Source: Massalongia carnosa
Lineage: Eukaryota
Assembly (NCBI GenBank): GCA_965645245.1
Contig: OZ287075.1
Location: forward strand, 682,001 to 746,000
Length of the DNA: 64,000 nucleotides
Reading direction: 5' to 3'
Under the pieces are notes generated by a model. The model did no database searches, had not been told where the DNA came from, and worked only from the letters and a program-made list of their open reading frames with translations. Below, piece by piece: positions 30,080 to 63,485 of this stretch (position 1 is its first letter; each line of letters begins with the position of its first letter). The position numbers were made by a program, and so were the translations under genes.

Positions 30080-31064
30080 TTCGAAACCATAATTACCCGG
30101 TCCCCATTAGGTGTCTTCGTATTAACTTAGGAAAAGGAGATGAATAGGAGACATCGAAGATCAAGGAAACAAAGGGGTAAGGAGGTGAGGAACAGATATA
30201 AAAGAAGAGGTCGAGTCTCGAAAGTTCTGGCTCCTTGTCCGACATCTTGAATAGCCAATATGGCCTAGCTATAGCTATAGACTCAGTCAATTAGAAAGCT
30301 TAACCATCCAATCCAGTCCCTTGACAACTATTATTACTATTACATTCGAACCCCGCTTCAACGATAGTCGCGTTTTACCAAAATAATTTCGTTATACGTT
30401 ATATCGGGGGAGATAGGGAAAATCATGATAAATTTACTACTTTATACCCCTAAAAACCCTCAATTCTCCCCTTTTATCCTCAGCAACTACCCAAGTGCTT
30501 AGAGTGGCTTGTTTTTGACTGTTTTGCCGTCATTTAAACAGCTCCCGTTTATGTCTTCGTAATTGACGAAGCATATCTATATCGTCCTTCAACTGCTATT
30601 TTTCATGTAGTCTCAGAATCCTACAAGCCTTCTGTGCTTGACTTACCGTTATAACAGATATAATATTCATCTCTTTATTCGTTTCAGCGAGATTTTCCTG
30701 CTTCGCATATCGTGAAACGATAACATTTATAATGTCTTTATTTGTATCTTCTATAATCTTCTCGAACGGGTTAATAAATTGATAAATATTTATCAACTCT
30801 TTCATTTTATTCATGATCTGCATCTGACGTATGTTCTGTGTAATCTCTTTCCAAATTGTCTCGAACTCGATTTATCTCGAGATTCTTAATTGATTAAAGA
30901 ATGCTGAATCTCAATCAAAGACGTCTGATCGCCTTCAGCAGTTCTGTATAATGAAAAAATTTGACGTCGTTTTTTCATGTTGAAATATTTCATCGCATAA
31001 CAAGAAGAACATTTATGAAGACAGTCGAATTTTTTCCAACATCAAAAGAACTTATCATAAACTT

Positions 31065-32277: not shown

Positions 32278-33410
32278 AACTTGACGAGTTATTTTCGTAT
32301 AAAGACCTTTCAATTTTGTATTATGCCTTGATTTAGTAGTTGATTTAATGGAATAATATTTGCAAATAGTCATGCAATGCGAATATTCTTCAAAAGATCT
32401 GTATAAATGAGTTTTAAAAATGATGTGATGATTAATTATAATATCTTTATTTATTTATCTTCGTCATTCAATACTTTTACAGTTAATTCGTGAAAACTGA
32501 AATTATTCATCAACAATAGAATCAATCGTTCATTTATATGATTATTTAATCAATGCAAATATTCTATTATGATGCTGTTGTTATTTCAAGCCTTGGGATT
32601 TTATCTTCAAACAGCATCGATGATCTTCAATATATAAATTTTGATATTTCGAAATCAATTTGATCTTTTGATCTTATCAATACATCAGATGTTAGATTTA
32701 TTTATTCATCAGGATTACATGTAAGACAGATAGTGATCCTAGCCCGTTTTAATTAGAATTCTATCGAATCGAAGCAGCTTACTGTAAAAAATACATTTTA
32801 TTCTGCTTCTATCGGCGTATCTTTCAGTATTAAGAGATCGATCGAATGACATTTTTCTATAACCTCCTATTTCATTTATGTTATAAACGTCTTTGATAGC
32901 ATATTAAGATGTTAATTTACGAAGATCAGAAATTATTTGTTGTAAATTTTCGCTTTGATCAGCCGAATCAATCTCGTCATTGTCACGATTCTACTCGGCA
33001 CGACCTCGGCACTCGGATGAATTCGGCACCGCCTAGGGCAAACCGTAGATGGAACGCGCAGGAACTTTCGATTTCGTTCCCGCACCTTCGATTTTGTTCC
33101 AGCAGTCACGAGAAGATTCCATCGCGACTATACCACATGGGTATTAGCGCAATAGTGGATATATAGGGGAAGGTTCGGGTTGTCAATTGTCTTTTTCCTT
33201 CCTCATCTTTATTGTATTCGTTTCTAGTGTCCCTATGACTTGTCTCTAGGTAGATCATAACATTACAATAAAGATCCAACTTACCCTGCTATCCTACGTG
33301 AGGGATATAAAAGAACTCACCCGAAGAACGAAACCAGAAGAACCCAGAACCCAAACGACGAACTGAACGAAACACGAAGAACCGAAGAAACCGAAGATCG
33401 CCACAGTGTT

Positions 33411-33498
33411 GGCACCAGAACCCGAACCCGAACCAGAACCCGAACCAGAAACCGAACCAGAAACCGAACCAGAAACCGTACCAGAACCGAACCAGAAC
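33411..33498. repeat. Minisatellite (AACCGAACCAGA-like 12-mers) in the chromovirus 3 leader
   Basis: Read directly from the sequence. Confidence 0.85.
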
Positions 33499-36400
33499 TA
33501 GACATAGACACCGAAGGAGGCCTCCCCTATAGCGATGGCACGATCCACAGGAACCGGGATTGAACTCCCAACTCGACGAGAATCGATGATCCCGACGACC
33601 CAGGAGACAGATGACGAATTGGAGGTAACGGAACCTCTGATGATCGAGAACTTTCGACAACTGAAGGCATGGATGAAGCACGACGGCTAGGCTGTGTCCG
33701 ACATGCTTCAGGAACTGAAAAAAGCCTATAACGACTCCATCGACCGAAGCAATCTCGCCACCGACATGGCCGAAAGCTTCCAGAAAAGAATGAACCAGCT
33801 AGAAGGAATTGTCGAATACCAAAAGGAAGAACTGAGGGAAGCACGTCGCCAGGCTTCCGAAACACCAACCGACAAAACACGAGAGCAGTCTCGCCCTCAT
33901 TCTCCTTCTCGGACACCAAGTACTCAACGGACCGACAGCACCAGTGACAAGAAGAAGTCCATGAAGCTCCCTGATCCTCCCATTTTTACTGATGGAAAAG
34001 AGATTTCCATTGACCATTGGCTGACGAAGATGCGGAGTAAATTAGCGGCCAACGAGGACCATATGCCCACGGAAGTGCTGAAGAAGGCGTACGTAGAGAA
34101 CCGAGTCGGAGGAGAAGCCATGGGGCACCTCGAACCCCGACTCCGAAAAGGTGCAATTCGCTCCTTTGTGACGGCCGAAGAAATATTCGACCAATTGGAA
34201 CGCACCTACGGCGACCCCAACCGAAAACAAAACGCCATGAACAGCTTCCGAGCCCTCAAGCAAGGAAGCAAAGACTTTAACACCTTTTGGGCTGAGTTCC
34301 AGCGCCTAGCAGCTGAGTTAGAGCATAACGAGGCCACGCTAATCAGCGAGTTGAAGTACAAGCTTTCCTGGGAAATGTCACTACAATTGGCCACCGGCGA
34401 CCAGGCACCAACCGACCTCTATGCGTTTGCGCAAAAGTGCCAACGCTTATACCAGGACCTCAAGGACTCGGACCGGAGTAAGGCTAGTATGGAACGTTAT
34501 GCTGAAAGACGTTCTAGCACGGCTCCGACCCCCAGCGCCATGGCCAAGAGAACGACGACTTCCACCAAGACCTACGTACCACCTCGACCCTTCACCAGCA
34601 CTCCGACCACTAGAACTACCTCTTACATGACGGAGGAGGAGAAGGAACGACTGACTAGAGAAGGTCGTTGTTTCTTTTGCAAAGAAACTGGACATATATC
34701 GAGGGACTGCGAGAAGAAGACTCGGCCAGCGAAAGTGCAAGAACTCGCTGAGGTTGCCGGCTCGGGAAAAGAATGACCTCCACCGAAGGCGCGGATGGAG
34801 GTGAACCTTTGTTGATTTCATCTAGCTGTTTACCAGGCAATTTGTTTACGGATGAACCTCTAGTCATACAGTGTAGGCCAGGTAACAGCGAAGAAATGAA
34901 AGTAATGGGACTGTTGGATACTGGTGCTACAGGACATGCTTTTATTGATGAAGCAACAGCGCGTGAAGTTTGTGAAAAGCTTCAAATCTCCCCTCAGAGA
35001 CTGACACGACCGAAACCGGTGAAAGGTTTTGATGGTAAACGGGGTAAAGACATCACCCATGCCATCTACCCCACCCTGACCGTACAAGACCACAAAGAGA
35101 CGGTGGCGCCTCTTCTGATCACCACACTAGGCCAACATAAGATGATCCTGGGCAAACCATGGATGAGGAAACATGGAGTAGTTATCGACATGGCCCTGGA
35201 CAAGATAATCTTCTGGCCCGGCCACTGTTCCCATCCAGGCGCACCCAAACCACTCCAGAAGCAAGAAACGACGAAGACCTCGAAGACTATAGAACCTAGA
35301 AAGGTTATGAAGATATTGACACGGACCCAAGAAGAAAAGACAGAACAGAAAGAACCCGAAAAGACCAAACCAGAACAGTCTATGCAGTCGAATGTGGTAG
35401 CTGACAAGGCTGTTGTTAGACTAACAGAAAGATTAACAGTCTTTCCATCTACCGAAACTGTAGATGGACATTCAACCGAAGATAAGCCGATAGAGATGGC
35501 CATGATAGGGGCTGCTGCGTATCGACTGCTCTCCAGATGAAAGGACGTCGAATTATTCTCCATTTCCTTGAAAGACATCGAGTATCAGCTCAACAAAGAA
35601 GACCGCCCACCGACTGACCCGAAGACGGTAGTTCCCCCGGAATATCACGAGTTTTTGGACGTCTTTTCCAAGGCCGCATCGGACACGCTGGCACCTCACC
35701 GACCCTATGACCATCGTATTATTCTGGAAGGAGGAAAAGATCACGGGCATAGCCCACTTAGGAGTATGTCGCAAAGAGAGCTCGAATTCGTCAAGAAATA
35801 CCTCGAGGACAACCTTCGAAAGGGGTTTATCGAGGACAGTCACGCTGCTTGCTCGTCCCCGATTCTTCTAGCCAGGAAGCCTAATGGAGGACTTCGCTTT
35901 TGTGTCGATTATCGACGGTTGAACCAGTTGTCAAAGAAAGACCACTATCCAATTCCCCTGATAGGAGAAACGCTAGCCCAGCTGAAAGAGGCCAAGATCT
36001 TTTCGAAAATCGATATCCGACAAGCGTTTCACAAACTCCGAATGGCTATGGAATCTGAAGATTTGACCACGTTTAACTCCCGTTTCGGTGCCTATAAATA
36101 CAAGGTATTACCGTTTAGACTTTCCGGAGGACCATCGACCTGGCAGCACTTTATCAATGACGTGTTGTTTGAATATCTGGACAAGTTCTGCACGGCTTAC
36201 CTAGACGACATCTTAATTTATAGCAAGAATCTGAAAGAACATCGGGAGCATGTACGGGCCGTTCTATCAAGACTTCGAGAAGCAGGACTCCAAGCGGACG
36301 TGGACAAATGCGAGTTCCACGTGACGGAAACGAAATATCTGGGACTGCTTATCGGTGTTGATAGCATTCGTATGGACCCCGCCAAAGTCAAGGCCATTCG

Positions 36401-38587
36401 TGAATGGGAAATTCCGACCTGCCTACGGGAGGTATGTTCGTTCATTGGTTTTTGCAATTTCTATCGCCGGTTCATCAGAAGATTTCCCAAGATCGCCAAA
36501 CCGCTGAATGCGTTGACAAAGAAAGAACGAATATTCGAATGGACCCCCGCATGTGAAAAATCTTTTCGAACTCTACAGAAACGAATTGGAGAAGCCCCAA
36601 TCCTGATACATTTCGATCGGAACAAACAATGCTATCTAGAAACGGACTCATCAGATCATGTCAATGGCGGCGTGCTCTCCCAGATGGGTGACGACGGAGA
36701 GTTACACCCGGTGGCTTTCTTTTCGAAAAACATGAGCCCGGCCGAGTGTAATTACGAAATATACGACAAGGAACTGCTAGCGATAATTCGCTGCTTCGAG
36801 CAATGGAAACCCGAACTGGAAAGTACGGACTTGCCAGTGAAGATCTTCACCGATCACCGAAGTCTAGAATATTTCATGTCAACTAAGAAACTAACTAGAC
36901 GACAAGCTCGCTGGGCGGAGTTTCTCTCGGAGTTCAATTTTGTCATTACATATCGACCCGGAAAGAAGAATGAGAAAGCGGACGCCCTGACTCGAAGACC
37001 AAATGACAAACCCCGGGACGATGATGACGAAAGGCAGCAACACCAGCTGCAGACACTGTTACCCCCTGAAAGATTTGAACTTCAACCAATCGAAGAAGCA
37101 ACGGAACCGGAAGCAACGGAATCAGAAGAAACCCCCGACCAGGACCCACCGACCCTGGACGAACGAATAAAACAGGAAAACCTGGAAGATGAACTTTGCA
37201 CCAGAATCAGGAAAGCCATAGAAAGAACCGACACCACCGACGACTCGTTACCCGACATAAAGAATTGCATCGTGGAAAAGGACTGTTATATAAGCAAAAG
37301 CGCTTATGGGTCCCGAACAAGAAAGAAACGATCCTAGAAGTCGTTCGGATAATACACGACCAAATAGCAGTAGGACACCCCGGAATCGCCAGGACTAGTC
37401 AGATAGTCTCCCGAAATTACTATTGGCCAAACATGAACAAGGACATCCATCGCTATGTACGAAACTGTCATGTTTGCAGGCGCGCAAAAGCACCTCGGGA
37501 CAAGTACAATGGACTACTGAAGCCACTGCCCATCCCAGAGAGACCATGGAAGGATATCACCCTCGACTATGTGACCGGACTCCCGAAAAGCAAAGGAAAT
37601 GACGCTATCCTGATGGTAGTGGACCGGATGTCAAAGGAAAGACATTATATCCCGTGCACATGCAGCGGGGAAGGCACAATAGCAGAGGCCACAGCGAAAC
37701 TCCTTATCGACAATGTATGGCGCTATCATGGACTCCCGAACAGCATGCTATCCGATCGAGGACCGCAGTTCGTCTCAGCAGTATGGAAGGCCTGGTGCAA
37801 AATTCTCGGAATTACAGCAAAACTGTCAACAGCCTATCACCCAGAAACAGACGGACAAAGCGAAATCGCGAATCAGGAAATGGAGCGTCACCTCCGGAGT
37901 TTTGTGAACTACAGCCAGGATGACTGGACGGACCTGCTTCCAATGGCCGAGTTCGCTGCCAACAACGCACCCTCAGCCACTACAGGGCTTTCACCGTTCA
38001 TGGCCACCAAAGGGTATGAGCCAAGAAGGAGCTTCGATCCGACCGAGCGTTCCGCAGACTCCACTAGGGAAAGACTAGCCAACGAAAAGCCAGAGCCATT
38101 ACTGACGACATGAAAAAGGTATGGGACTTTGTTCAACAAAACATGAAGAAATCCCAAGAACGACAAGCAATAGCGGCAGACCGGCATCGAACTGAAGTCT
38201 CGTACAGCGAAGGGGACATGGTGTGGCTATCCACAAAGAACATCAAGACGGAGCGTACCGCCAAAAAGCTGGATCACAAAATGATTGGTCCCTACAGAGT
38301 CAAGAAACTAGTAGGTTCTTCCTGCCAATTGGAACTCCCACCGTCAATGAAAATCCATGATGTCTTCCACACCAGCCTACTTCGGAAGGCCTCCGACGAC
38401 CCACTTCCAGGCCAGATTAACGAACCACCACCGCCAGTAGTGGTTGAAGGGAACGAGGAATGGGAACTAGATGACATCCTGGATGCACGAAGACGCTACC
38501 GAAAGATTCAATTCAAGGTCAAATGGAAGGGAATAGACGAAGATTTGACATAATGATGCAGAAGGCTTCGAAAATGCAAATGAGATA

Positions 38588-41465
38588 ATCGTCGGCTCGC
38601 TTACCTCCGGGATCCGACTTGAAAAAATGTCGACCGCATTTTAGTCGGGGAAAGCGGTTGCATCCCGGAAAGCGGTTGCATCCCGGAAAGCGGGTGCATC
38701 CCGGAAAGCGGTTGCATCCCCTCAAATTCAAATTTCTTCATCTTTTTGATCATTGACCAACAACCACATTGATTAAAAATCAGTCGCCACCGTACATAGC
38801 TTGAAAATCATTTCTCCGACCCAACTGATTATCAATTCAAATCCTTTCCTTTCGAATCAATCCCCCGAACCAATCTCCCCTTTCGAATCATGGATAACGA
38901 CGCCTCCCTTGTCTCCACTCTCAACCCTATGGAAAGATTGAAAAAGGCGAAGGAATTTCTGACAAATCATCCCAAAGAAAGTAAAACGACTGCAGCTAGA
39001 ATCTACAATATCAACGTCAAAACTTTGACGTCTTCCATTCGTCGACCAGAAGGGAGGAAAATTGGAGGACAAAATCAGATACTGAGGGAGCATGAGGCAA
39101 GGTCAATTATTGGCTTTATTAAGTCCTTATTGATTCATGGAATTCTTCCTACACATCAGATGGGTTTTAAGGCTATTGTAAGTCTGCAAAAGGCCTATAC
39201 CCCCCTCGAGGTAGGCCCGTCAAGAAGATGGTTTCGGAGCTGGTGGAAATGTAACAAACTTCATAAAATAAAGACAAAACCACTAGCAATGATTCGTTAT
39301 AAAGCTGCCCAAGAATCAGATGTGATGGAATGGTTTGAAAGGTATAGAGAGAGAGTTGAAAATTCGAAAAAGTCGGAACATTTTGAACTTTGATAAAGCT
39401 GGTTTTCGGGTTGGATGCATGAGGGGTCAGGAAATCATTGTTCCTGAAGAAATCAAACAATTCTACGCCGTCAGCCCGGAAAATCGCAGATCTGCGACAG
39501 TTATTGAGACTAGCAATGCTGCCGGCGACTATCCCCCCCCTCTAATGATCATCGTACAGGGTCATGACATCATGGCCACATGGTTTTCGGAAGGTGTGCC
39601 CTCGAACAGTGGTTTTACATCTGATAAGATAGCAATTGAATATTTGAAGCATCTTATCAAACATACAAATGCAGGACCTGATGCGGAATGGCAATTATTG
39701 CTGATGGATAATCATGGCAGTCCTACAACCCCTGAATTTTCACTTTTGGCCAATGAGAATCGCATTCGACCCTTTCCCTTTATACCGTATTTAACTCATT
39801 GCATGCAACTATTGGATGTGGGCGTATTTCAGCCTTATAAGCATTGGCATTGCAAAGCCACTGAGGAAGTCGTTGCGTCGTTATTTGTCGAGTATTCTGT
39901 CTCAATTTATACAGGACTTGACCAAAATCAGAAATTATACATTCAAGACTTCTACGATTCGGCATGCATTTGAAAAGTCGGGAATGTGGCCGATTGGTCC
40001 AAAGGCATGCATTCGTCAGCTGAAAAATTTCAATCCCAATGATCCCAATGATTCATTAAACAGTCTGAATACGAATAATGAGCCCTCATTACCTCTACCC
40101 CCACCTCGTCAAATCCAACCGACAAAAGTAGCTGACATTGAGTATGGTTTGAGTCAATAGGGACCGAAAAGCAGAAAATCCATGCAATAGAGTGATCCCG
40201 CTCGGGCTGAGGGATGGGACTCATTTGTAGACAATATAAATGAAGTTGTTTCGAATACGATTATCGATGGCATGGAGCTGGAAATGCATCGAGAATCAAG
40301 AAGAAGTCAGTTAAATAAGAGACGAATGTCTCGTAAACGTCTGAGACCAGAAACCGGAAGATTGGGAATCACAGCGGAAGATGCAAAGTAGGCTAGAGCC
40401 ATCAGACTACAACAGGATCAAGAGGCTGAGGAGAAACGAGCGAATAATAGCTTCATGAAGCTATAGCGAATAGAAAGAGAAGAAATGCATGTCAAGGGAT
40501 TGGCTGCTCGAAAAACAGAAAGAGATCGAGTCAAACAGCTGAAAGAAATGCAGAAAATGCTCGGTCCTATTCCAATTGAGATGTATGAGAAGATTCCTGA
40601 CCCCGAGGCATTATTGAAGGCCACGAATGAGGTATGGATAGCTGAGGAAGCGAAGAAGGAAATTAGAAAGAATCCGCGTGACAATGTCAATGAGGAAGAT
40701 GTCACGTTTATCGTAGATAGCACTGGTCATGGAGATAATTCAATCCTTCCAGATCTTCTAGAAGGAGAAACATGGCTACGATATGATTTCGTATCTTTCG
40801 ATTCGGAAGAATCATTGAAAGAATTCGATTTAGAAGCATCTTTCCAACCAGGAGATGCGAATAATTGGTAGAATGCGGGGTATTGTTACAGCGCCGCCGT
40901 ATAAGGCTGATTATTACTAAGCCTGATGACTCAGCGGTGCTGAATACAGTCATACTATAGTCAGGTCAAGCGATGACTAATGGGACGGGACAGAAGGTCT
41001 GAGCCCACGGAGGAACGTCCGCCCTTAGTTGGCATAGTTGGCAGAGTACTGAAGAAACTCGACCTCGACTATTCCCACTGATCTATATAATATAGTGTTA
41101 GGCCCACCTAGATAGATCATCTTACAATTTAACTACTCCGTACTAAATTGTTCTACTCTTAACCCACTACACTACTCCTAGTCCAGAGTCACTCTCACAG
41201 GTATGCGGGGTATGCGGAGTAAGCGGAGAATCACGAAGGTCAGGGTGTCAGGGGGGTCAAGGCAAATGATTTTGACGACGGTGATGATGACGGCAATGAT
41301 TTTCAAGCTATCTACGGTAGCGACTGATTTTTAATCAATGTGGTTATTGGTTAATGATCAAAAAGATAAAGAAATTTGAATTTGAGGGGATGCAACCGCT
41401 TTCCCCGACTAAAATGCGGTCGACATTTTTACAAGTCGGATCCCGGAGGTAAGCGAGCCGACGAT
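38588..41465 (+). mobile_element. pogo/Fot1-like DNA transposon with long (about 170 bp) TIRs, inserted in the chromodomain of chromovirus 3; transposase pseudogene about 38890-40871
   Basis: TA TSD and TIR ATCGTCGGCTCGCTTACC...; motifs AARIYNINVKTL, NFDKAGF, LLMDNHGS, THCMQLLDVGVFQPYK; frameshifts and stops. Confidence 0.92.
40884..41199. mobile_element. Solo LTR, family B (316 bp)
   Basis: TGTTACA...TCACA termini, TSD GGTAT, internal TATATAA. Confidence 0.88.
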
Positions 41466-41951
41466 TAGTGGAAGAATTTTACAAACGAAACCCGAAGAAG
41501 CCACGATGAACGCCTGCACGCTAATCGAATTGATCATCCAATCTGTCACGTGATGAAACGGACGAACGAAAAAGGAACAGCTCGACAATAAAACCCCGGA
41601 GATAACGCGGATTTTATCGCGGTCAGGTGACTCGCGATCTAAAGCGGGGGGTAGTGTCACGATTCTACTCGGCACGACCTCGGCACTCGGATGAATTCGG
41701 CACCGCCTAGGGCAAACCGTAGATGGAACGCGCAGGAACTTTCGATTTAGTTCCCGCACCTTCGATTTTGTTCTAGCAGTCACGAGAAGATTCCATCGCG
41801 ACTATACCACATGGGTATTAGCGCAATAGTGGATATATAGGGGAAGGTTCGGGTTGTCAATTGTCTTTTTCCTTCCTTATCTTTATTGTATTCGTTTCTA
41901 GTGTCCCTATGACTTGCCTCTAGGTAGATCATAATAGTCATAATAAATATA

Positions 41952-44568: not shown

Positions 44569-44763
44569 TAAATATATTGTTTGAGTTTTCGGCGTCTTTT
44601 AAATCGATTCAGTCAGTTATTGCTTTAATTTGAAGTCAAAATAAATCTTCATACTAAGGCAATTTGTTTTACAATTCGATGATATTGATTCGTAAAACTT
44701 CAGCATTAATAAAAAGATTGATTTATTTATATTGTTGCTTTTATTCGAATAAAGCATCTTTTA

Positions 44764-45782
44764 TGTAATACGGATAGCGCTAGAAGGATACGTGATCGCC
44801 TACGGCGTTTGCGGGATTAACCAGCATGAGCCATGCCGTAGTACTTAGTCGCACAGCCGTCGAGGTTGACACGACGCTACCTTGCCACACAACTCCGAAT
44901 CCTACGTTCTAGACTGCTTACAGATCAAACACCTGTCGAGGCCGTGGTGGTAGATTGCCATAGAGTAAGGCGAACTCCTGTGGAGAACCCTTGAACTCTA
45001 AATAGGATCTACTGGCCTACTCGGAGCTACTCGATCTCTTGATGGATCAAGAGTTGTAGCAGGAGGCACAGCTAGCTGGACGCAGCTTGAGCTCGGCCTC
45101 CCCGGTGTAAACTTCAGCTTCAACCTTTGTTGCTACGTTGGTAGTGATGTCGGCTAAATCAACCTACATAACCTTATTGTCTAGACCTTGTGTCTAGGGG
45201 CAGGTCCGCAGTGTAGATAGAGATTCAGTCGGAGGTAACCTTCCATCGCTACGTTGGTAGTGGTGACGGCAAAATGAAGCTACATAGCCTCGGCGTCTAG
45301 ACTTTATTTTTAGAGGCAGGCTAGCAATGTAGTGAGGGATCTAGCCGGAGGTAGAAGTGTTCTGCCTTGCAAGGGAAGGTCTAGAAGGCTGCTCGAGGCT
45401 GACTAGATGATCCAGTGAACGCCGAGTTCGTAGATGGATCCTGAGGGATGGTTAGATGTAAGGCGATAAGGTCAGAAGTGGGTTGCAAGGCTCCTAAGGT
45501 TCCAAGGCTCCCAAGGCTATAGGCTTGGGGTGAGTAGGATAAATACCAGAACGAATCCTGTAGTATTCGTTAGCAATTAGTTTTTATTCTATGAACAACC
45601 TACGTTTGGGTCTCGGACGAGATCTCTTGGTCTAAGCACTTCCACATCCATTAGTTCTTTAGATTACATAAACTCTCGGAGACCAGCACGTAGTAGCTAT
45701 CTTCCCCCTCTCACGCTGAACATTTCCCCTTTCGAGATCAGCGTCGCTCGTGATTAGCTTACTGGTCTCGTAGCCCATTACA
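44764..45782. mobile_element. Solo LTR, family A, second copy (1019 bp)
   Basis: TGTAAT...ATTACA termini, TSD TTTTA, aligns with 16578-17552. Confidence 0.92.
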
Positions 45783-45830
45783 TTTTAACATAAGTCATTT
45801 AAGAGTAATCTTTCGTTTGATTGAGCTCGC

Positions 45831-46401
45831 TGTGACGAAGCGAGATAGTAAATAGATTTCTACCATTGCGCCACCTGTCCTTCCCGACCAAAAGGCACAA
45901 TACTTAATCCGCAGACCAAGCTCTATTCTACTATAACTGGGACTCTTGCTATGTTCGCTGTAGGTCCTGCCGTCCGCACCACGCTTGGTCGAACCGTTAC
46001 ACTACCGCCCGTCTAGCTGCGGCTAGCCCCTAGCCGCTTCCAGTTATAGTTAGCTCCGAAGAATGGGCTCTTCTTAGCGTACGGCCCTCGCCGATCCGAC
46101 TTAGAGAGTTTTCATCCAACGCTTTCCCGTTTCGTCCTAGCTTCAGTCCGTCGAAGCAAGACGAAAAAGCGAGGAACTCAGGTCAGGAATCGAACTCACG
46201 ACTAGTACACCGATTGATGACTAAGTATTCTGTGACGAAGCGAGATAGTGAATAGATTTCTACCATTGCGCCATCTGTCCTTCCCAACCAAAAGGCACAA
46301 TACTTAGTCCGCAGACCAAGCTCTATTCTACTATAAATGGGACTCTTGCTATATTCGCTGTAGGTCCTGCCGTCCGCACCACGCTTGGTCGAACCGTTAC
46401 A
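45831..46401 (-). mobile_element. Complete 571-bp TRIM (171-bp LTRs 45831-46001 and 46231-46401; 229-bp non-coding internal region)
   Basis: TG..CA termini and TSD CTCGC/CTCGT. On the minus strand the PBS AATACTTAGTC follows the 5' LTR and purine-rich AGACGGGCGGTAG precedes the 3' LTR. No ORF. Confidence 0.93.
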
Positions 46402-46763
46402 CTCGTCTTATTTTTATCATTTTGATAAGCATATTTGAAAATAAGACTCTCGCTGATAGATGTACTCTCAGGCACTTAATTATACTCTCTTTTATATCAC
46501 ACGCGACAGTTATTCTAAGTCACTTTATTTGTTGAATCATCATTGTATCTGTCCCGAAGAGCTTTTCGCTAAAAATATTCGTGATTTCACGATAAGTTTT
46601 TTTTCGAGAAGGAGAAATTGACAAAGATATGAAGGCATGTCATTCTCGAGACATATTTATAGCAGAATCGTAGCAAATATACGACAGCTTTATCACTACG
46701 CTATAACAAACGTTATCAAAAAGTTGAAAATATTTTTCGTTATATCGTTATGAAGGGTTTTTC

Positions 46764-49171: not shown

Positions 49172-51182
49172 ATGAAGGGTTTTTCGTTATAACGAGGTTT
49201 TTATCATGAAACTATAAAAAACCCGAGAAAGAACTTCGTTATGCTGAGGTTTTCGTTATAAGGAACTTTTCTATTGCGGGGTTCGACTGTATTACCAGCT
49301 CGAAGGCCTCGTCGAACTCGATCATATCATTTTTTTCGATCTTCACTGATATAAAGACGAACTCTACTTTCTGCTTTAGAGGAACCTTCGCGATACTGAT
49401 TTCCACCCTTTAAAGCTATAACCTGTTGAATATAACAAGGTATGTACTCAAACCAGTGCTGAATACGTTTCTTAGTCAATGTCTTTTTCTAGCACCGTGT
49501 CCAGACCTTCTCTATAATAATTCTATTCGTCGGACAGCCCCTTCGGGTAGTTTGTCGCTTTATCTAGGCCCAACAAGTCTTGATTATATTGAGATCAGGA
49601 GATTTTCCGGGCCAAATCAAGCGTATAACTCCTGCATTTATTAATATCTAATCCTGATGCTTACAAGCATAACGTAATTGCTACTTATTCGGGCAAGCCA
49701 CCTACTCGGGCCGCGCCATTCAAATCTAATGGGTATCTAATTCTTTTCTATTATTATTTATCACCACCATCCAATCATATTTAAATAAATTCAAAATTAG
49801 ATATATCAGATTCTAATACTCGTTTAGAATTAGCTATTAAATATTTGCGAGAAAAACCTAATGTATCATAACGAGAAATCGCCCGTATTTATAATATTCC
49901 TCGATCGACGCCTCAAGCTCGTTTACGGGATAGACAACCTGCAAAATCCTATTATCAAACTATACAAAGTGTTGAATATTCAACTCCTACCAGTACAGTG
50001 AACACCTACCAGTTCAATGAACATAGCACCTACGACTGCCCAAGATGGACAGAGCACCTACAGAAACCGTAGATGCCGTATTAGGCTTAGCCTAGAGATT
50101 AGATAAGATCAGCTCAGATAATCTTATCACCTCGCTTAGCAGAGGGTGACCAGTTATGGGACAAAGACTGCTGAACAGCACTCTTCATCCTTAACATCAC
50201 GGTCATACATACCATTTTTATCATAGCCATATAGCCATAGTCATATACCTATTTCAACAGGTTATGAGCCCGGAAGGGCGCTATCGATTCAGTCACGAAT
50301 CGAATTGCTCATCCGCAGCACTACAGTGCATAATAGCTAAGCATCATCGTTTACAAAAAAAAAACCCCTTAGATGCAATACTAAAAAATTTCTTTGCGTA
50401 CTTAGAATTTACCTCACCACGATTATCTATCGTGAACTACGCACACGCATCATTACACGAAATTCAAATGCACAATACCTACAAAGACCTTGGACACCAG
50501 ACAGGCCGTTAGCCCAAAGGCCCAAGGCAATCTCAACAAACCTTTGAATAGCGTGTATGCCTGGAGATTAGAAGGAACGATGAACCTCTAAAGACCAAAG
50601 GATACCACTATGTCAACTAGGTTCAGGGAGCAGGAAGAGATACAGACCCATCTTGGAAAAGTAGTCCTTCCTTGCCAAAAGAGATTTCTTGAACGCCACA
50701 GAAGGGAAAACATGGGAGTAGTGAAAGTGGAAGAACCCTGTTTCATTTAACAGGCCCTGTGCCTGTTAAATGAAAACGGTATATCCCTGTTCAGACTCTG
50801 TTTTTCCTTGTCGTCAAGTGATAGATAAAAGTTCACTAGGATACAAGCCGATGATAGGTCAAAGTTCATCAGGTTACAATCAAGCCACCAAGTGATAGGT
50901 AAAAGTTCACTAGGATACAAGCCGATGATAGATCAAAGTTCATCAGACTACAATCAAGCCACCAAGTGTTAGACAAATTTTCACTAGGATATGGGCTTGG
51001 AGCAAATATTGCTAGGACAATGAGGTGCATGATGATAAGTAAAAGGAATGCTGCTTGTTTTTCTCATAAGGAGAAGTCAACACATCATCCTCCTACTTTA
51101 TCCCTCACACATTGTATTATAGAACTCTAAGATATAAAAATCAAGTTCTTCATTCACAAGCTTTCTACTCTTCATTCACAAG

Positions 51183-52124
51183 ATGTCTAGTTCTACTCAA
51201 GACGTGATTCAGTTGTTAGAAAAAGCGGAAGATTATCCACAATGGGTTGTGCACACCGAGGGCATTCTGAAGCAAAAGAATTGTATCTTTGCTATTCAAG
51301 ATAACATTGCCGCTATCACGTATCAGACAGTCAAGCGCAAGTACTTGGAGATGGGCTTCACCGAGGCGAATCTCAAGGATGAACAAATCTTTACCAAAGT
51401 CGGAGCTGACGTTGAAAAGCAGAGCCTTCTCATGCTCAAGGCCGAAGGAATCATTCAAATGCGTGTCGCCCCACAGCATCACACTCTGATATCAACCCGC
51501 ACAGCTGGCGATATGTGGAGAATCTTGAAGATCAAGTTTCAGGACATCGCACCCATGAGCATCACCGACATTCTCTACAACATGAACTCCAAGAAGATGA
51601 CGAATTATGAGAATGTCACTCAATACTGCGCTGAGTATGAAAAAGCATTGAACTCCATAAAAGGCATGATAGATGAGGACTCGGAACTGAACGCAAAGGG
51701 AGCAGAACAAGTCCTTCAAGGATACTTGTTACGAAACGTCATCGAGGACTATCTACCCCTTATAGCTCAACTTCGTCGGGATTGGATTACTGGCAGATCG
51801 AACCTCACGACTGCATGCAGATCAATCACCGCTTACTCCATCAGCAGGCCAGAGAGGAAGGCACTCCACATCAATGCTTCCAGAACTGGCGTTGCCGGAA
51901 ACAACGGAAAAGCACCACCAGGAACTTGCACCTTTCCAGAATGTGTCCGAAGAGGGCGGACTTCCCACTTACTAGAGAAATGCTTTCAGAAATACCCAAA
52001 TCTGAGACGTCAAACATACCCCTTAGAGTCTATGAAGACAAGAGGAACAAGGACCTCTGATTCCAAAACGGAAACGGTCCCGACATCCACCGTATCAACA
52101 GACCTACCAACTGTGAGCAGTTGA
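51183..52124 (+). CDS. gag: Gag of the Copia element
   Basis: 313-aa ORF with variant zinc knuckle CTFPECVRRGRTSHLLEKC; ends in TGA, in frame with pol. Confidence 0.85.
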   Translation: MSSSTQDVIQLLEKAEDYPQWVVHTEGILKQKNCIFAIQDNIAAITYQTVKRKYLEMGFTEANLKDEQIFTKVGADVEKQSLLMLKAEGIIQMRVAPQHHTLISTRTAGDMWRILKIKFQDIAPMSITDILYNMNSKKMTNYENVTQYCAEYEKALNSIKGMIDEDSELNAKGAEQVLQGYLLRNVIEDYLPLIAQLRRDWITGRSNLTTACRSITAYSISRPERKALHINASRTGVAGNNGKAPPGTCTFPECVRRGRTSHLLEKCFQKYPNLRRQTYPLESMKTRGTRTSDSKTETVPTSTVSTDLPTVSS

Positions 52125-55100
52125 CTCACAAAGGTCATGACCGTTAGACTACAGAAGATCATGACTATGACAAGTCTCAGTAGAAGTTCTTGGCTATTGG
52201 ACAGCGCGGCAGATATGCATGTATGCAATCACAGACCCTCTTTCACTGACTACATAGACTATCCTACAGGACTAGCAGGATCAACGTCCACAGGCACATC
52301 GCCAGGAAGAGGGACTATTCAAAAAACTTTGACATCAGAGGACGGATCACCTTGTTCAGTTTTGACCCTCAACAATGTACTTTACATTCCTCAATGCCCT
52401 GTGAGCCTCGTCAGCCTTGGACTACTCAATCAGCATTCTATTTTCTATGATAACTCGAACTGGAGACTGTTCCTTGAACCTACCAAGAAAATCATATGTT
52501 ATGTACCCAGAGTTAACAGCAACTTCATGCTACAAACCATAGACACTCTAGATATGAGGATGCATCTGAACAAGATTGACGAGAACACTTATCAAGAAGA
52601 AAACGTCGCTATTCATCAAACTTTCATAAAATTCAAGCTCACAACTTGGCATGCACGTCTTGGTCATCTCAACATACCGACATGCCGAAAGTACCTGAAA
52701 ACACTGAACATAACGTTTGTTGACGATATCAATCAGGGTTGGTTCTGTCATGCTTGCGAGATGGGGAAAGCCACCAAGATATACAATCGAACTCCACAAG
52801 AGAAAGCCACGGAGATCTTCCAGAAAATAAACTCCGACATGGTAGGACCAATCAAACCAGTAGGGCTCCTTGAAGAGCTCTACTTCTTCACCTTCACCTG
52901 TGACGCCAGCAGATACACTCATGTTTATACGGGACACAAAAAAAGTGAATGGTTTGATCACTTGTTGACATACAACAACATGGCTCAAAACAAATCTGGG
53001 AAAGCAAAGCCAATAAGCATCTTTCGCACTGACTTCGGCACAGAACTACGCAGTCACAAGTCAGATAACTGGTTCCTTCAACAAGGTATAATATATGAAC
53101 CTTCCGCCACATATTCTCAAGAAGAAAACGGTGTCGCAGAACGAATGGGTAGGACCATCATGGACATGACAAGATGCACAGTTATTGGTGGAGGAATTCC
53201 AGATTATCTGTGGACAGAAGTCGTTTTAGCCATGGTTCACACCAAAAACGTTAGACCAACAAACGCCTTGGGAGGTAAAACCCCCTATGAAGTCTTTGAG
53301 AACAAACCACCCAAGCTAGATCACTTGAGAGTACTTGGATCCACCGTTTATGCATTGATTCATGAACAAGAGCGAAAGGGAATGAACAGCAAGTCTGCAA
53401 AATTCGCCCCAAGAGCTCAGAAAGGAATCTTGTGTGGATATGACGGAAACACTATCTATCGCGTCTTCCTGGAAAAAGACTACAAGGTCATTCGAGTCAA
53501 AGATCTACGAATTCATGAAGATGCTATAGACAAGAATGAGACTGATCTGCCTACATACGATTCCGTGATGATTGTTGAAGAAGATGAGAATCTGCCTAAA
53601 GCTATTTCCAACTCTTCCAGAACTCAACCACGGTTAAATCCCGAAGTCACTGAAGCTTCAAAACGAGGAAGAGGTAGGCCCAGGAAACATGCTCATGTAG
53701 CACAAGTACTGGCCCTTCTGTCTAATGAAGCACTGACTGAACCAGAGCATATCTTCACAATGGTAGACAAAGATGAAGAAGATCCACTCATACTTCTAGC
53801 CAAGGAAATGGAAAAAGAGGGAGCAGCAAACCTAAACGATCTTGATGCGTTCGTTCAATCAGACATAGCTGAGCCACAGACATATCATCAAGCAATGAAC
53901 TCCAGCTATTCAAACGAATGGAGCCTGGCAATGAACGAAGAGCACAAGAGCCTCATGGAAAACAACACCTGGGATACTGTACCTATCGAAACCATGAAAC
54001 TTGGACACATAGCATTAAGCGGTAAGTGGGTATATAAGCTAAAGAAAGATGTGAATGGAAACATCACCCGCTTCAAAGCTAGATGGGTCGTCAAGGGATA
54101 TCTACAACAATACGGAGTAGACTTCGATCAAACCTTCGCTTCTGTGGTCAAGCCGATGGCCTTTCGTCTGATATTCGCATTAGCTGCTTATCATGACTTG
54201 GATATCGAACAACTCGATATAGTGACAGCTTTCCTCAATGGCTTCATTGATCAACTCATCTATGTTCACATGCCAAAAGGTTATGACGTACCCGGCATGA
54301 TATGTAAACTGAACAAGGCCCTGTATGGTCTAAAACAGTCTCCTCGCCTCTGGTATGAACGACTTTCTACCTTTCTGCTGCAAAAATTAGGACTCGAGAA
54401 GCTTCACGCAGACCACAGCATCTTCGCCACACCTCAAGGCATAAAAGGTCCCATCGTTACTTCTTTCGTTGATGATCTGAACATCATAGGTCCAAAGGGC
54501 TCCCAAATGATCACCGAAGTCAAGAGACAACTCAAGCTAGCATTCAAAATGGTAGACATGGGACCGATCAGTTACTACTTAGGTCTCAAGGTCGAACGAG
54601 ATCGAGTCAAAAGGATCATCAAGCTATCTCAACCAACCTATATTGAGAAAGTGCTAGAAAGATTTCATATGCAAAATGCAAAAACAGCCAATACTCCCAT
54701 GCGAGAAGAATGTCTTTTCACCAATGAATCCCAAGCCTCCGACAAAGACATTAGACAATATTAAACCATTGTTGGATCCATCATGTTCGCGATGATAGAA
54801 ACAAGACCCGACATTGCTTTTGCAACATCTGCAGTCAGTCGACATTCGAAAAATCCAAGCAGGACACACATGGAAGCGGCCAAACATATTCTCAGGTATC
54901 TTAGCGCTACCAAGGACAGAGGTATCACCTTCGGCGGAGGAGACCTGACAATACAAGGGTATTCCGATTCCGACTGGGCCGGAGACAAGGAAGAACGCAA
55001 GTCAACGTCTGGTTATGTCTTCATGTTAAACAATGGACCCATAAGCTGGTGCTCCAAAAGACAAACAACCGTCGCATTATCATCAACTGAAGCAGAGTAT

Positions 55101-55502
55101 ATGGCACTTACCTTAGCAGCAAAGGAGGCCACATGGCTACGTTTACTGATGACCGAACTTGGATTAATGACTATAGACAACGAATCCCCAACGGTAAATG
55201 TGTTAAGAGGAGAAGGCACCATCGCATTAAAAGGCGACAATCAAAGCGCCATAGCCCTTGCCAACAATCCTGTCTTACACGCTAGGACTAAGCACATAGA
55301 CATTCAGCATCACTTCATCCGGAACGAGGTCCTCGAGGGACGAATCGACCTCACCTATGTCTCAACAGAAGACATGATAGCAGACGGACTGACAAAACCT
55401 CTCACTCATGTTAAGTTCTTCTCGTTTGTCAGACAATTACACATGGATAACAATTCAACCACGGTTGAACCTACAGGCAAAACAAGTACTGGCAGGACTT
55501 GA
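52125..55502 (+). pseudogene. pol: Pol of the Copia element (protease-integrase-RT-RNaseH) with one nonsense codon at 54762-54764
   Basis: WLLDSAA, WHARLGH...CHAC, FRTDFGTE, ENGVAER, FKARWVVKG, LYGLKQSPRLW, FVDDL, YSDSDWAG, KHIDIQHHF. TAA replaces the conserved Q in Y*TIVGS. Confidence 0.93.
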
Positions 55503-55955
55503 GGGGGGGTGTTGAATATTCAACTCCTACCAGTACAGTGAACACCTACCAGTTCAATGAACATAGCACCTACGACTGCCCAAGATGGACAGAGCACCTA
55601 CAGAAACCGTAGATGCCGTATTAGGCTTAGCCTAGAGATTAGATAAGATCAGCTCAGATAATCTTATCACCTCGCTTAGCAGAGGGTGACCAGTTATGGG
55701 ACAAAGACTGCTGAACAGCACTCTTCATCCTTAACATCACGGTCATACATACCATTTTTATCATAGCCATATAGCCATAGTCATATACCTATTTCAACAC
55801 AAAGACTATCCGTACACGAGAAACAAGCACTGATTATATAGATTGAAAGAATGACTGCATAGGGCTGGCCCCCTCGAATTATACATCTTAAAAGCATTGC
55901 TAAGAGTTTAATAGAGACCAAAGGGGATCGAAAAGCGCTTAGATACTATTGGTAT

Positions 55956-58777
55956 TCTGGTGGGGCGACACGTGTCATCTATGGTCAGGTGACATGGCAA
56001 GCCTGTATGGGGATAAAACGGGTTTTTGCTGGCGTTTTCTTCATCATCTCCGGACATTATCTTCTATTACCTACGCTATCATCATCATCGTCGTGTCACG
56101 TAGTTATCGACATACGTTCATTTCGTGCATGAACTAGTCGTTCAGTCGTTAAGTCGTCGAGTTCGTTTCATGTCTATGTAGTCGTAGGTCTATTCAGACG
56201 TTTGTGTATGTATGTGTATGTGTATGTGTTCACTGCTCAGTTCGTCATCTATCATCACGTACCACCACCTTCTATTAGCACGCACGACTACCCTTCTTCA
56301 TTGGCGACCACGGTGCGATATATGATTGTACTGGTGCAATTGAGCGGTTGAACTGAGCATCAAACGTCGAAAACCTCCTTGTTTTGCACCTCTGATCACT
56401 CTGACTACTCTACCTCCGGCCGTGCACGATCGAGTCCTCCTACATCAAATCAAGCATTATGGCCCCCATCAGCTTTTTTACCTTTTCGACCTCCGCTACC
56501 CCTACTGTTACCGTTTCACCGACTGCATGCGTTCCAGACGTCTATTTCTGGGAATGGCTAGTCGTTCTATTCACTGCACTGATGGCGATGATCTCGTGTT
56601 GCACCTTCTGCTTTTGGGCCAATCATCCGACCGAGACCTACAGGACTAGTTTGACTGCACCTACTCCGTTATCAGTGAAACAATCACGTCAGCGAAGACG
56701 AACGAAACGTGGCAGGCCTACCAAAAGAGCCTCCGTTTCGACCTCCGAGTCGTCAGAGTCGTTCGAGTCGTTCACGTCTATCACTAGTTTACCTTCATCT
56801 TCACCTTCACCTTTATCAACAAATTCACCTCTAAAAAAGCGACAACGTCGTCATCTTCCGAGAAAGCGATAGCAAAATAGCCGGTCTATCTCCGTGTCGA
56901 GGGCATCGTCTGTCAGTTCATCAGCACCGTCAGTATCATCATCAACTGCCTTGGTTGCATCAATAATGTCATACATGAGCATGGACGAATTGTTCGCGAA
57001 ATATGGGGCATAAAAGGCCTATGTAGCCAATACAAACTATCCAGAATCGCTGCCTATTTGTCCAGCAGTCGCCGTGTCACCACCGGTTACTATGTCTGCA
57101 CCGTCTGCACCGTTTATGTCTGCACCGTCTACCGCACCACTGTCACCCATCATCGCTCATCGTTCTGCCGTGTCTTCGGCACCTGTCATCACCGCTATCG
57201 AGTCAGCTGACACTAAGTCAGCAATTGAGTCATCTACACGTGGGCCGGAAGGGCCGAAATCAGCACTTTTACGTTCAGCACCTGGTTGTAGCAATGAGCT
57301 AGCGCGGGCCGGGGAAAGGCCGACTACTGAGTCCGCTGCGTCTACTGTCACTGCGTCTGCTGACACTAAGTCAGTCATTGAGTCATCAAAAAAGGGGCCG
57401 GAAAGGCCAAAATTAACATTATTTCATTCAGCCTCTGAGGTCAATGTGGAGCTAGCTATGGCCGGACGCCTTCCGGACGTCAGCTACGTCGAAATTGACG
57501 ACTATTTAGCACCTTCTCGTTCAGCATCACCGTCCCGTTCAGCGTCATCTTTTCGTTCAGCACGTTCAACACATTCAGCGTCATCATTCATTCAATTAGT
57601 GACCTTCGTTTCGTCAAATGTCGATGAATATCTGTCTACTTTGCCGATCATTCAGTCATCTATCTCTCCTCGAGCACTAGGGTTTTTATATTTGCAGGCC
57701 TCTACCTGGATAGTTCCTATGTTTCGAATATCTAGCCTTCCCCTTTCGGAAGCCCTAAATCAACTAGCAGGTGCTGATACCACGAAAATATTGCTGCACA
57801 CTGTCGTGGGTCGAGAGATTTTGACCGAGTTGCTGACAAAAGTGAAAGAAATTCTCGCACGGTTATCAGCTAGTGCCACCGTGTCAGCCAATTTGGTGAG
57901 GTCGTTTCCACCTCCATATAGGTCAGGGCCATGGCAGTCAGACCGAGCTAGGCACGCACGGGCTAGACGTGCAAAACGTTCGCGCTGGATACTACCTGCA
58001 CCTCCGGTTTCATATTATTCCACTCCATTTGACAGGCCCGGCCTATCTAATCAGTCAGCGTCAGCACCAGCACCGTCATCACCTCCGTCGTTATCATCAG
58101 CCCTACCAGCTGCACCACCGGTTGATACCTTGCTATTACCTGAAACGGTCAAGTCGTCAACATTTGAGGTCTATCGGGCGAGCGGTGCGTTCATTCCGCC
58201 TCAGGCTAACTCCATGTAGTCGTCCGGAACACCGTCAACAGACCCATCAGTCAGTCAACAACGATTTATTCAGTTCGTGTCTACCCCCGAGGGCTGGCAG
58301 GCAATAGTGACGATGATGGAGGCTATTCAGCAGCGGATAGGGGTCGATGTGAGTCGTGTTTTTCACATGTGACGTGATCATATGAGCTGTGATTGGCCCG
58401 CAGGGCAGACTAGTGAGGCGGACAGATTAGAGGCGAGGCGAGGGCTCAGAGACGAGTTCTGATTAGTCAGGCGAGGTGAGCTGGCGAAGTGTTGACAGAT
58501 GCCAGGGGACGGCATCTTTAGGGTGTGAGGCTATGTGGTGGGGCGACATGTGTCATCTATGGTCAGGTGACATGGCAAGCCTGTGTGGGGATAAAACGGG
58601 TTTTTTGCTGGCGTTTTCTTCATCATCTCCGGACATCATCTTCTATCACCTACGCTGTCATCATCATCGTCGTGTCACGTAGTCGTCGACACACGTTCAT
58701 TTCGTGCATCAACTAGTCGCTCAGTTGTTCAGTCGTCGAGTTCTTTTCATGTCTTTGCAGTCGTAGGTCAATTCAGA

Positions 58778-58808
<31 letters not shown>

Positions 58809-58879
58809 TTACTGCTCAGTTCGCCATCTATCATCACGTACCACTACCTTCTATTAGTACGCACGACTTCCCTTCTTTG
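55956..58879 (+). mobile_element. Non-autonomous LTR element (about 345-bp direct repeats 55956-56300 and 58534-58879) carrying one decayed non-Gag/Pol ORF
   Basis: Direct repeats, PBS-like TGGCGACCACGG at 56302 and purine-rich AGGGTGTGAGG before the second repeat. It interrupts the Fot1-like transposase; no clean TSD. Confidence 0.75.
56459..58372 (+). pseudogene. About 637-codon Ser/Pro/Ala-rich ORF with an N-terminal hydrophobic helix and three in-frame stops
   Basis: ORFs 56459-56872 and 57074-58219 share a frame; the only stops are at 56870 (TAG), 57011 (TAA) and 58217 (TAG) before TGA at 58370. Confidence 0.6.
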
Positions 58880-60200
58880 TTGTAAAAACTTTTTGAACAG
58901 ACATACTAAATTCAAGTTAAAATATAATAGAAATTTGGATTAGGTCAGAAAAGACGCCAGCGACCCTGTTATCATGAAGGATTGGTTCGATTTGTGCATG
59001 ACCACTCGCGAGAAATACGGTGTCGCAGATGCAGATATATGATTTGATTTGATTATTCTTACGCCGTTGTGTCACCGGCCGAAGGCCGGCCCATGCGGGA
59101 GTTACTATATAAGCGATGTAATAAGTAGAAAACCTAAAGGTGAAAAACTACTCCTGCGCATCCGCTTCATCGGGGGTTCGCCGCTCCCGCGGATTGATTC
59201 CTGTATCTCGAAAATCGGCGATACCTGTTTTTCAATCTGAAAAGAGACTGCCCGGCTGCTGTTCAAGCAGTTGCGTGGCAATAGAATACTGTGTTAAAAT
59301 ACGGCGCAGGAGCCACGTGGTTACAACTTTGAGAACATTGGGTTCGATGATTAACTTGCGGTAGTCTGACGTGCCTGCCGTTCGTAGCATATGCTTTCTG
59401 TGTTCGTGCAGTCTGCAGAACATGATTACATGCTTGGCTGTTTGTAAGAGGCTTCCGCAGGGACATGCCGCCGAGTTCACACCTGGGACCTTGCGCCGAT
59501 TTAGAAAGATTGCCGGTCCGATTTTTTCCATTCTTATCTGTGTTGCTAGTGAGCTTTGCGCTTTGTCTAGTAACTTGTTTGCGTTAAGCCTTTTCCTGAG
59601 TATAGGCGCCTGTTGTGCAATCGTGGGATATAACGTGTGTTTTGCTTGATATGCTTTCCACTTGTTGATCCACTGATTCTCAAAGTGCTTCTTTATTATC
59701 CCGTCTCGTAGGTTCTGCGTCGTTACTTGCGCTGTGCGTTGTCTCTTCTATACCTCGTCGATCGTTGTACAGGGAAGGGGAGAGGGTTGATCCAGTTTAA
59801 CTGTTTTCGGTGCGTCTTTCGTTATCTTTATTACCCATTCTCGTTTACGAATTCCCGGTGTTTTCTCTGCGACTCGCGATTGACCTCTTTTACCTCTGAG
59901 TTTCACTTGAATTCTATTGCACTCCTGCTTTATAATTTTTTCCTGTTCGCTGTTCGAGATTCTGGATCTCGTTTTTGCTTGTAAGCGGTCTAGATATTGC
60001 ATTAAGGGAGGTATGTGGGTTTCTGCCTACAATACTTCAATTGGGGTAGCCTTGTACGCTCCGACTATGACTCGTAAACACCTGTTTTGTATGACCTCGA
60101 GTTTGCTTCTTGATTCGATTTTGGCTTTCTTTCTTGCTTCGGCTGGCATATGCCATGCTATCGAGCCGTGCGCCATGGCGGGGCGTATTACTGCTATATA

Positions 60201-63314: not shown

Positions 63315-63485
63315 TGTAACGGTTCGACCAAGCGTGGTGCGGACGGCAGGACCTATAGCGAACATAGCAGGAGTCCCAGTTATAGTAGAATAGAGCTTAG
63401 TCTGCGGACTAAGTATTGTGCCTTTTGCTCGGGAAGGACAGGTGGCGCAATGGTAGAAATCTATTCACTATCTCGCTTCGTCACA
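63315..63485 (+). mobile_element. Solo LTR of the TRIM family (171 bp), opposite orientation to the other copies
   Basis: TGTAACG...CGTCACA termini, TSD CAGTG/CAGTA, inside the LINE endonuclease region. Confidence 0.92.

Follow-up and report, generated by a model that had tools for sequence, protein, structure and literature searches.

The stretch of DNA analysed here (hereafter the window) comprises 64,000 nt of the lichen-forming ascomycete Massalongia carnosa (GenBank assembly GCA_965645245.1, contig OZ287075.1, positions 682,001 to 746,000 of the forward strand), and all coordinates given below are window positions. Between 45831 and 46401 we find a complete, non-coding element of 571 bp that resembles a TRIM, or miniature terminal-repeat retrotransposon, i.e. 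two long terminal repeats (LTRs) around a short core; it is read on the minus strand, as are all of its parts. The 5' LTR (46401-46231; 171 bp, TGTAACG...CGTCACA) has TG..CA ends, and the 3' LTR (46001-45831) is likewise 171 bp long, with TGTAAC...GTCACA as the ends of both. The 229 bp between them consist of a 1-nt spacer, G46230, and the 228-bp non-coding core that forms the internal domain (46002-46229). Adjoining the 3' LTR, the core ends in a tract resembling a polypurine tract (PPT), GACGGGCGGTAG (46002-46013), which has purines at 9 of 12 positions, is purine-rich rather than pure, and closes with GGTAG. The same ending is seen at the equivalent site (GCGGGGGGTAG) of gypsy C, the third chromovirus in the window, as a preliminary description of this locus had claimed. 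The element is flanked by a 5-bp target site duplication (TSD) with one change, ACGAG upstream (46402-46406) and GCGAG downstream (45826-45830), the latter being the version carried by the contig of an unoccupied site described below. As to coding capacity, the longest stop-free frame has 75 amino acids, and three frames of 50-74 amino acids match no Pfam family at E-values up to 10. With 571 bp in total and LTRs of 171 bp, the element lies within the size limits set for TRIMs (<1000 bp, terminal direct repeats of 100-250 bp), and it is non-coding and non-autonomous as TRIMs are.

Starting 1 nt after the 5' LTR, i.e. at the place of a primer-binding site (PBS), lies the sequence AATACTTAGTC (46229-46219). 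It is the exact reverse complement, in 11 of 11 nt, of GACTAAGTATT (46309-46299) inside the 5' LTR, a motif that would make up the first 11 nt of the transcript and could thereby serve as a self-primer. An independent repeat search lists the same inverted pair in an extended form (14 nt at 93%, with one mismatch). As a test for chance, the LTR was shuffled 3000 times at the mononucleotide level and searched for a complement to the bases beginning 0-6 nt behind the LTR, with 11 nt as the minimum length; a single shuffle reached 11 nt (1/3000), and the analytic estimate (7 offsets x 161 positions x 4^-11) amounts to about 3e-4. The complementarity between the PBS and the LTR is very unlikely to be due to chance. 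This exact pair, 1 nt behind the 5' LTR of a 571-bp TRIM, is what the preliminary description had reported, and its further claim of a TATA-like segment about 25 nt upstream of the LTR motif agrees with a TATAG starting at 46335, 26 nt upstream, which is present in all copies. A second site, ATATAG, starts at 46354 (-45) and is found in 3 of the 8 window LTR copies that cover it.

The predicted structure of the RNA is consistent with a use of this pair in priming. From the start of the primer motif to the end of the LTR the distance is 79 nt, the part beyond the motif (46231-46298) representing the rest of the putative R-U5 leader, while the 92 nt upstream (46310-46401) would correspond to U3, with a U3/R border that follows from the presumed start. 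Folding of the RNA from 46309 to 46200 yields -31.1 kcal/mol (z -2.78), and none of 200 shuffles is as stable. The predicted minimum-energy structure of the leader includes the 11-bp duplex, which is ended by a G/G mismatch between nt 12 of the RNA and the spacer G46230; across the predicted ensemble, each of the 11 pairs forms with a probability of 0.93-1.0. In passages on priming in the literature, the first 11 bases of Tf1 are described to pair with the PBS, and RNase H to cut between bases 11 and 12 (PMC7175516). Such self-priming is regarded there as general for the Tf1/Sushi group (PMC4600332, PMC6317226, PMC6934838), with Tf1/Tf2 of Schizosaccharomyces pombe, Tj1, Tcn1, Maggy, Skippy, CfT-1, Boty, Grasshopper and Afut1 among its members (PMC7175516, PMC4600332, PMC6934838, PMC6317226). 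Like these elements, the TRIM has a PBS complementary over 11 of 11 nt to a stretch inside its own 5' LTR, no tRNA PBS, and an R-U5 leader that in the RNA folding prediction brings primer and PBS together; its duplex of 11 bp has the same length as that of Tf1. Unlike them, it has neither gag nor pol and measures 571 bp compared with about 5 kb. Being without protein, it has no protein-based placement in the Tf1/Sushi clade, and in contrast to Tf1, where start and cut are described, both are deduced here from the sequence.

On these grounds we consider it likely that the 571-bp element is a non-autonomous TRIM of a lichen-forming ascomycete that primes its reverse transcription in the manner of Tf1. 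We infer that transcription by RNA polymerase II begins within the 5' LTR, at G46309 or close to it. The leading 11 nt of the transcript, GACUAAGUAUU, would then fold back over the 79-nt R-U5 leader onto the PBS, a step for which the complementarity is observed and the fold predicted. By analogy with Tf1, the RNase H of a helper chromovirus could cut after nt 11, and the 3' OH thus freed could prime minus-strand DNA; the purine-rich tract ending in GGTAG would prime the plus strand, and the helper integrase would insert the copy with a 5-bp duplication, such duplications being observed. Because the element encodes no protein, Gag, reverse transcriptase/RNase H and integrase must come from an autonomous Ty3/gypsy chromovirus; mobilisation in trans and the RNase H cut are, in this scheme, analogies with known elements. 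One would expect a non-autonomous element that derives from a self-priming chromovirus to retain the way its ancestor primed. The preliminary description had called the element a minimal self-priming parasite of a Tf1/Sushi-type chromovirus: the parts of this proposal that can be followed in silico held up, and it is the transcription start, the RNase H cut and the identity of the helper that we still infer.

The neighbourhood of the TRIM provides a comparison, as the window harbours a nest of LTR elements, namely gypsy A, B and C and a copia element. Gypsy A (plus strand) has its 5' LTR at 18162-18705 and, together with the nested gypsy B, spans 18162-30326; its Chromo domain is detected at the Pfam cut-off (25.1 bits). 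Gypsy B (24655-30079, plus strand) interrupts gypsy A in its 3' LTR, flanked by TTCGA at either end, and its Chromo domain scores above the cut-off (36 bits). Gypsy C (32981-41934; 8.95 kb) has SH3_Tf2-1 together with a Chromo domain detected over its first half. Across these gypsy elements the Pfam domains RVT_1, RNase H, Integrase, SH3_Tf2-1 and Chromo are found, so that, as in the Tf1/Sushi group, autonomous elements with Chromo and Tf2-1-type SH3 domains stand beside the TRIM. In all three, the LTR contains a stretch that can pair with the bases right behind the 5' LTR, in the same layout as in the TRIM, and the leaders of all three are predicted to form the primer/PBS duplex. For gypsy A the PBS is 8 nt long at an offset of 3 (155 of 3000 shuffles as good; 90 nt from primer start to LTR end; 40 nt from TATA to primer), for gypsy B 9 nt at an offset of 2 (32/3000; 83 nt; 41 nt) and for gypsy C 12 nt at an offset of 1 (0/3000; 58 nt; 45 nt); the corresponding values of the TRIM are 11 nt, an offset of 1, 1/3000, 79 nt and, depending on the TATA-like site, 26 or 45 nt. 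The primer and PBS sequences of the TRIM are unrelated to those of its three chromovirus neighbours. Gypsy A and B are related to each other and align from TATA to PBS, with the primers GTCCGACG and GTCGAACG and the PBSs CGTCGGAC and CGTTCGAC, respectively. In their duplex, 2 of 8 pairs have changed on both sides in a compensatory manner, and 16 of 16 cells are paired; the shuffle control for this covariation (117/500) is powerless with two sequences.

These neighbours bear on the possibility that the inverted repeat of the TRIM is a leader stem for packaging, dimerisation or RNA stability and that priming takes place at another site. The stem does close a structured leader of 91 nt, and its tie to priming comes from prediction and analogy. 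Yet its 3' arm sits exactly where a PBS is required, 1 nt after the LTR, with no other candidate PBS at hand; an arrangement of this kind shows covariation between gypsy A and B, and the literature on the Tf1/Sushi group, in the passages concerned, assigns this layout to priming (PMC4600332, PMC6317226, PMC7175516). We therefore regard a purely structural stem as unlikely.

A host tRNA, or a fragment of one paired through an internal part of the tRNA, might instead prime the element, in which case the LTR complement would be incidental. The copia element of the window offers a reason to consider this: its post-LTR sequence GGTTATGAGCCC (50260-50273, plus strand) has a complement that includes CTCATAA, similar to an anticodon loop with CAT, and thus resembles a half-tRNA primer site, presumably for tRNA-iMet and of the kind known from some copia lineages. 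Half-molecule tRNA primers are indeed reported for some copia elements in the part of the literature that deals with them (PMC6317226). For the TRIM, the stretch to be weighed as a tRNA target is GAATACTTAGTCATCAATCGG. No TGG is found in the first bases directly after the 5' LTR, as the preliminary description had stated, and ARAGORN detects no tRNA gene in the 64-kb window. Within the 571-bp element it detects no tRNA at a threshold of 80% and, at 60%, only implausible intron-bearing hits, and Rfam yields no match in the element at E-values up to 10. The LTR complement, moreover, is exact over 11 nt and rarely equalled by shuffling, and it is located where gypsy A, B and C have theirs. With the tRNA search covering the window and the element, priming by a tRNA or tRNA fragment seems to us quite improbable. 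By eye, the U5 of the TRIM contains TGGCGCAATGG (46273-46263), which is similar to an A box/D arm, and its core, 34 nt in, contains GAGTTCGATTCC (46197-46186), similar to a B box/T arm and followed 17 nt later by TTTTT (46168-46164). Such motifs call to mind Cassandra TRIMs, which reportedly have pol III promoters. A tRNA-like nature of the element, as these motifs might suggest, was rejected, given the searches with ARAGORN at 80% and with Rfam; the motifs may be due to chance or represent a relic.

The TRIM family is present in the window with further copies. On the minus strand, an array of the form LTR-core-LTR-core-LTR (32277-31069) with a chimeric middle LTR is flanked by a perfect TSD (AAGTT/AAGTT), and a solo LTR with the TSD GAGAG/GAGAG is nested in it (32218-32048); another solo LTR lies on the plus strand at 63315-63485 (CAGTG/CAGTA). 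Thus, the full copy, the array and the solo LTRs each have their own 5-bp TSD, as had been noted before, with two of the four insertions showing perfect TSDs and two matching at 4 of 5 positions; such TSDs mark transposition in TRIMs. In the middle LTR of the array (31634-31706), the initial 73 nt of an LTR, with a PPT before them, run straight into a complete LTR, and the chimera looks like a product of recombination or template switching. The PBS is identical in all three window copies (46219, 31920 and 31452), and the primer motif is exact in 5 of the 7 window LTR copies covering it, the two exceptions being the 3' LTR of the 571-bp copy, where it reads GATTAAGTATT with a C>T change at 45907, and one LTR of the array with a 1-nt deletion.

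Outside the window, 14 of 18 listed public runs contain the element or a part of it (12 studies; one lichen metagenome). Our contig comparison covers four of the 18 (X1, X4, X6 and X7; all contigs), with 4303, 106, 1 and 6 contig pieces on the element, respectively. The family is very abundant and appears to be among the most abundant repeats. Loose ends of the contigs cluster at 45831, 46001/46002, 46231 and 46401 and run into unlike, AT-rich flanks; these four borders therefore mark where a dispersed repeat really ends and confirm the limits assigned to the LTRs. In addition, one contig each in X1 and X4 represents an unoccupied site, joining 45830 to 46413 with 6 other letters in between. 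These contigs are exactly 576 bp (571 + 5) shorter than the window and keep one copy of the TSD; with 25 letters on the shorter side, such a contig may stem from another allele or from a paralogue of the flanking region. A pattern scan of metagenome contigs for LTR ends plus PBS gave 12 loci, none of which (0/12) matches beyond the pattern, and these were discarded as chance hits; two LTR-pattern scans of genome contigs gave no match in either case. The array demonstrates that copies have been reshaped by recombination, and the two LTRs of the 571-bp copy have diverged. A chance match of primer and PBS, or a family spread by recombination or segmental duplication in place of retrotransposition, would nonetheless have to contend with the one shuffle in 3000 that is as good, with four window insertions that each carry their own TSD, and with the contigs, in which many unlike flanks meet the exact LTR ends and the unoccupied site is shorter by just 576 bp. 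We consider this explanation very improbable.

At the threshold used for listing, 36 of the 571 positions are variable in the contigs of the four runs. No variant at 5% or more affects the PBS in X1, X4 and X7, the runs covering it, or the primer motif of the 5' LTR in X1 and X4, the only runs covering that copy. At 45907, in the primer motif of the 3' LTR, the T of the window is outnumbered in X1 and does not occur in X4, X6 and X7; for this reason we take GACTAAGTATT to be the primer motif of the family. The C>T variant would still pair, as G-U. In X6 and X7, whose contigs bear other organism labels, the TRIM is found with about 96-97% identity (9 letters differ out of 309 and 14 out of 358, respectively). 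Against this stands the host gene of the window, an M28/transferrin-receptor-like peptidase, whose nearest other relatives are just 76-77% identical in protein; the best named one is from Pseudocyphellaria aurata (77%), and the next are from other lichen-forming Lecanoromycetes. The high identity of the TRIM across organism labels may reflect unusual conservation or transfer.

Several observations weigh against self-priming of a mobile TRIM and have to be set beside the evidence above. The first concerns conservation: one of the 36 variable places falls into the 33 motif bases, where 2.1 are expected, so that there is no significant depletion, in a test that has no power. Neither CpA nor TpG occurs in the motifs, and transitions make up 17 of the 24 kinds of change listed in X1; the motifs may thus simply be seldom hit by the kind of mutation that prevails. 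The preliminary description had asked for compensatory changes between LTR motif and PBS among the copies of the TRIM. We looked for these, and none is found within the family because neither motif varies, leaving conservation as the sole signal; covariation would look like a GATTAAG primer linked with AATACTTAATC. Secondly, the TATA-like site shared by all copies lies at -26, compared with 40-45 nt in gypsy A, B and C, and the ATATAG at -45 occurs in the minority of copies given above. None of the 18 listed public runs is recorded as RNA, and the start at 46309 is deduced from the pairing. Thirdly, the two LTRs of the 571-bp copy show 6 differences (3.5% divergence), and since they have diverged to this extent the copy is, judged from its sequence, old rather than a very recent insertion. 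Fourthly, a tRNA fragment may act as primer, the tRNA search having been directed at the window and the element. Finally, no element that combines the LTRs of the TRIM with coding capacity is found in the window, and the similarity to gypsy B has a window-wide E-value of 0.76, with no similarity that continues past it (219 of 500 shuffles as good).

This similarity is a weak match of 22 out of 24 nt between the TRIM core (46154-46133) and the chromodomain-coding part at the 3' end of gypsy B, and none of 300 shuffles is as good when this 3' end alone is compared. Otherwise, the search for a helper stayed largely at shuffle level: the LTR of the TRIM is no closer to the LTRs of elements A, B, C and D than shuffled sequence (79, 299, 74 and 50 of 300 shuffles as good, respectively), and the same is true for the core compared with the 5' untranslated regions of the gypsy elements and with the 3' ends of A and C. 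With gypsy C, the TRIM shares the 1-nt spacer between LTR and PBS, and across the PPT/U3 junction CTAGA-CGGGCGGTAG/TGTAACGGTTCGAC a hand count gives 25 matches in 30. In shuffle tests that used internal parts of gypsy C without LTR, the last 131 nt of the TRIM core compared with the 95 nt before the 3' LTR of gypsy C were equalled by 6 of 1000 shuffles (3 of 500 in another run), and the end of the core compared with the 200 nt before that LTR by 12 of 1000. The similarities to gypsy B and gypsy C are weak and may be taken as leads, not as an identification of the helper. Among the contigs, a 1,774-nt contig of X6 departs from the TRIM at 46139 but keeps the 3' LTR, and a 281-nt contig of X7 keeps GGTAG and the LTR with a different sequence upstream; these are the best places to seek an autonomous relative.

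As both halves of the duplex are located on the RNA of the parasite itself, the primer of the TRIM need not match that of its helper. We therefore put forward, tentatively and as a possibility less probable than its alternative, that the TRIM is a natural minimal substrate for self-priming, mobilised in trans by a chromovirus with a different primer and PBS. Its family has attained a very high copy number, and the occurrence at about 96-97% identity in contigs with several organism labels and in a lichen metagenome leaves room for spread between lichen fungi. The inventory that such a substrate would hold within 571 bp consists of a putative promoter, the 11-nt self-primer, the 79-nt leader, the PBS, the PPT and the ends for integrase. 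If this were true, the reverse transcriptase/RNase H of the helper would recognise the duplex by its shape instead of by its sequence, and the parasite, by priming itself, would be free of the need to match either a host tRNA or the helper.

Self-priming is known, and so are TRIMs; of the two combined in a self-priming TRIM we found no published description in searches of open-access full texts. The definition of TRIMs, as worded in a passage of the literature, includes a PBS complementary to a tRNA (PMC6934838), which the present element lacks as far as the window and the element were searched. Plant TRIMs, described first in potato and Arabidopsis, include Cassandra, Wukong and SMART. Like these, our element is smaller than 1 kb, its terminal repeats fall between 100 and 250 bp, the short non-coding core closes with a PPT-like tract and TSDs of 5 bp are present, and its family forms tandem LTR-core-LTR-core arrays and solo LTRs. 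It differs from plant TRIMs in showing no similarity of sequence, in being hosted by a lichen-forming ascomycete and in lacking a tRNA PBS. TRIM-like elements of fungi are mentioned in the form of RetroCl1 of Colletotrichum and of a REPET 'TRIM' class in Umbilicaria pustulata, which are, as far as these mentions go, likewise small non-autonomous LTR elements of ascomycetes; the texts citing the former and the table row listing the latter make no mention of self-priming. Closest to our case are TRIMs of bivalves without recognisable PBS, for which the authors, in the passage concerned, cite self-priming as a precedent and propose no mechanism (PMC6934838). Like these, the Massalongia TRIM has no canonical tRNA PBS, but in contrast to what is described for them it has a precise complement of LTR and PBS at the canonical position. 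A clear TRIM with a Tf1-type pair of primer and PBS suggests a general answer for TRIM families in which no PBS is recognised. It would also provide a very small natural template for the study of the cis requirements of self-primed reverse transcription. Programs for finding LTR elements will overlook such families in fungal genomes, or assign them wrongly, if a tRNA PBS is among their requirements.

Some features of the other elements in the window should be added. Gypsy B contains a gap of 200 N at 25799-25998 and an in-frame stop at 29372-29374, ahead of the chromodomain. In gypsy C, the 3' part (region 38550-41654, plus strand) has apparently received the insertion of a DNA transposon, since the Chromo match ends at about 38550 and a DDE_1 transposase fragment follows at 39326-39973. 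The copia element (49970-55799, plus strand) has LTRs at 49970-50259 and 55509-55799 that are 100% identical over 291 nt. Downstream of it, at 56015-58882 (plus strand), two direct repeats of 289 nt, 90% alike and 2579 nt apart, surround a stop-free frame of 401 amino acids without a Pfam family, which may be another non-autonomous LTR-like element. Finally, a segment of about 600 nt that includes tandem units of about 116 nt occurs twice on the plus strand, at a distance of 28 kb (16556-17175 and 44742-45353; 92-96% identity); about 500 nt separate the second of these copies from the TRIM.

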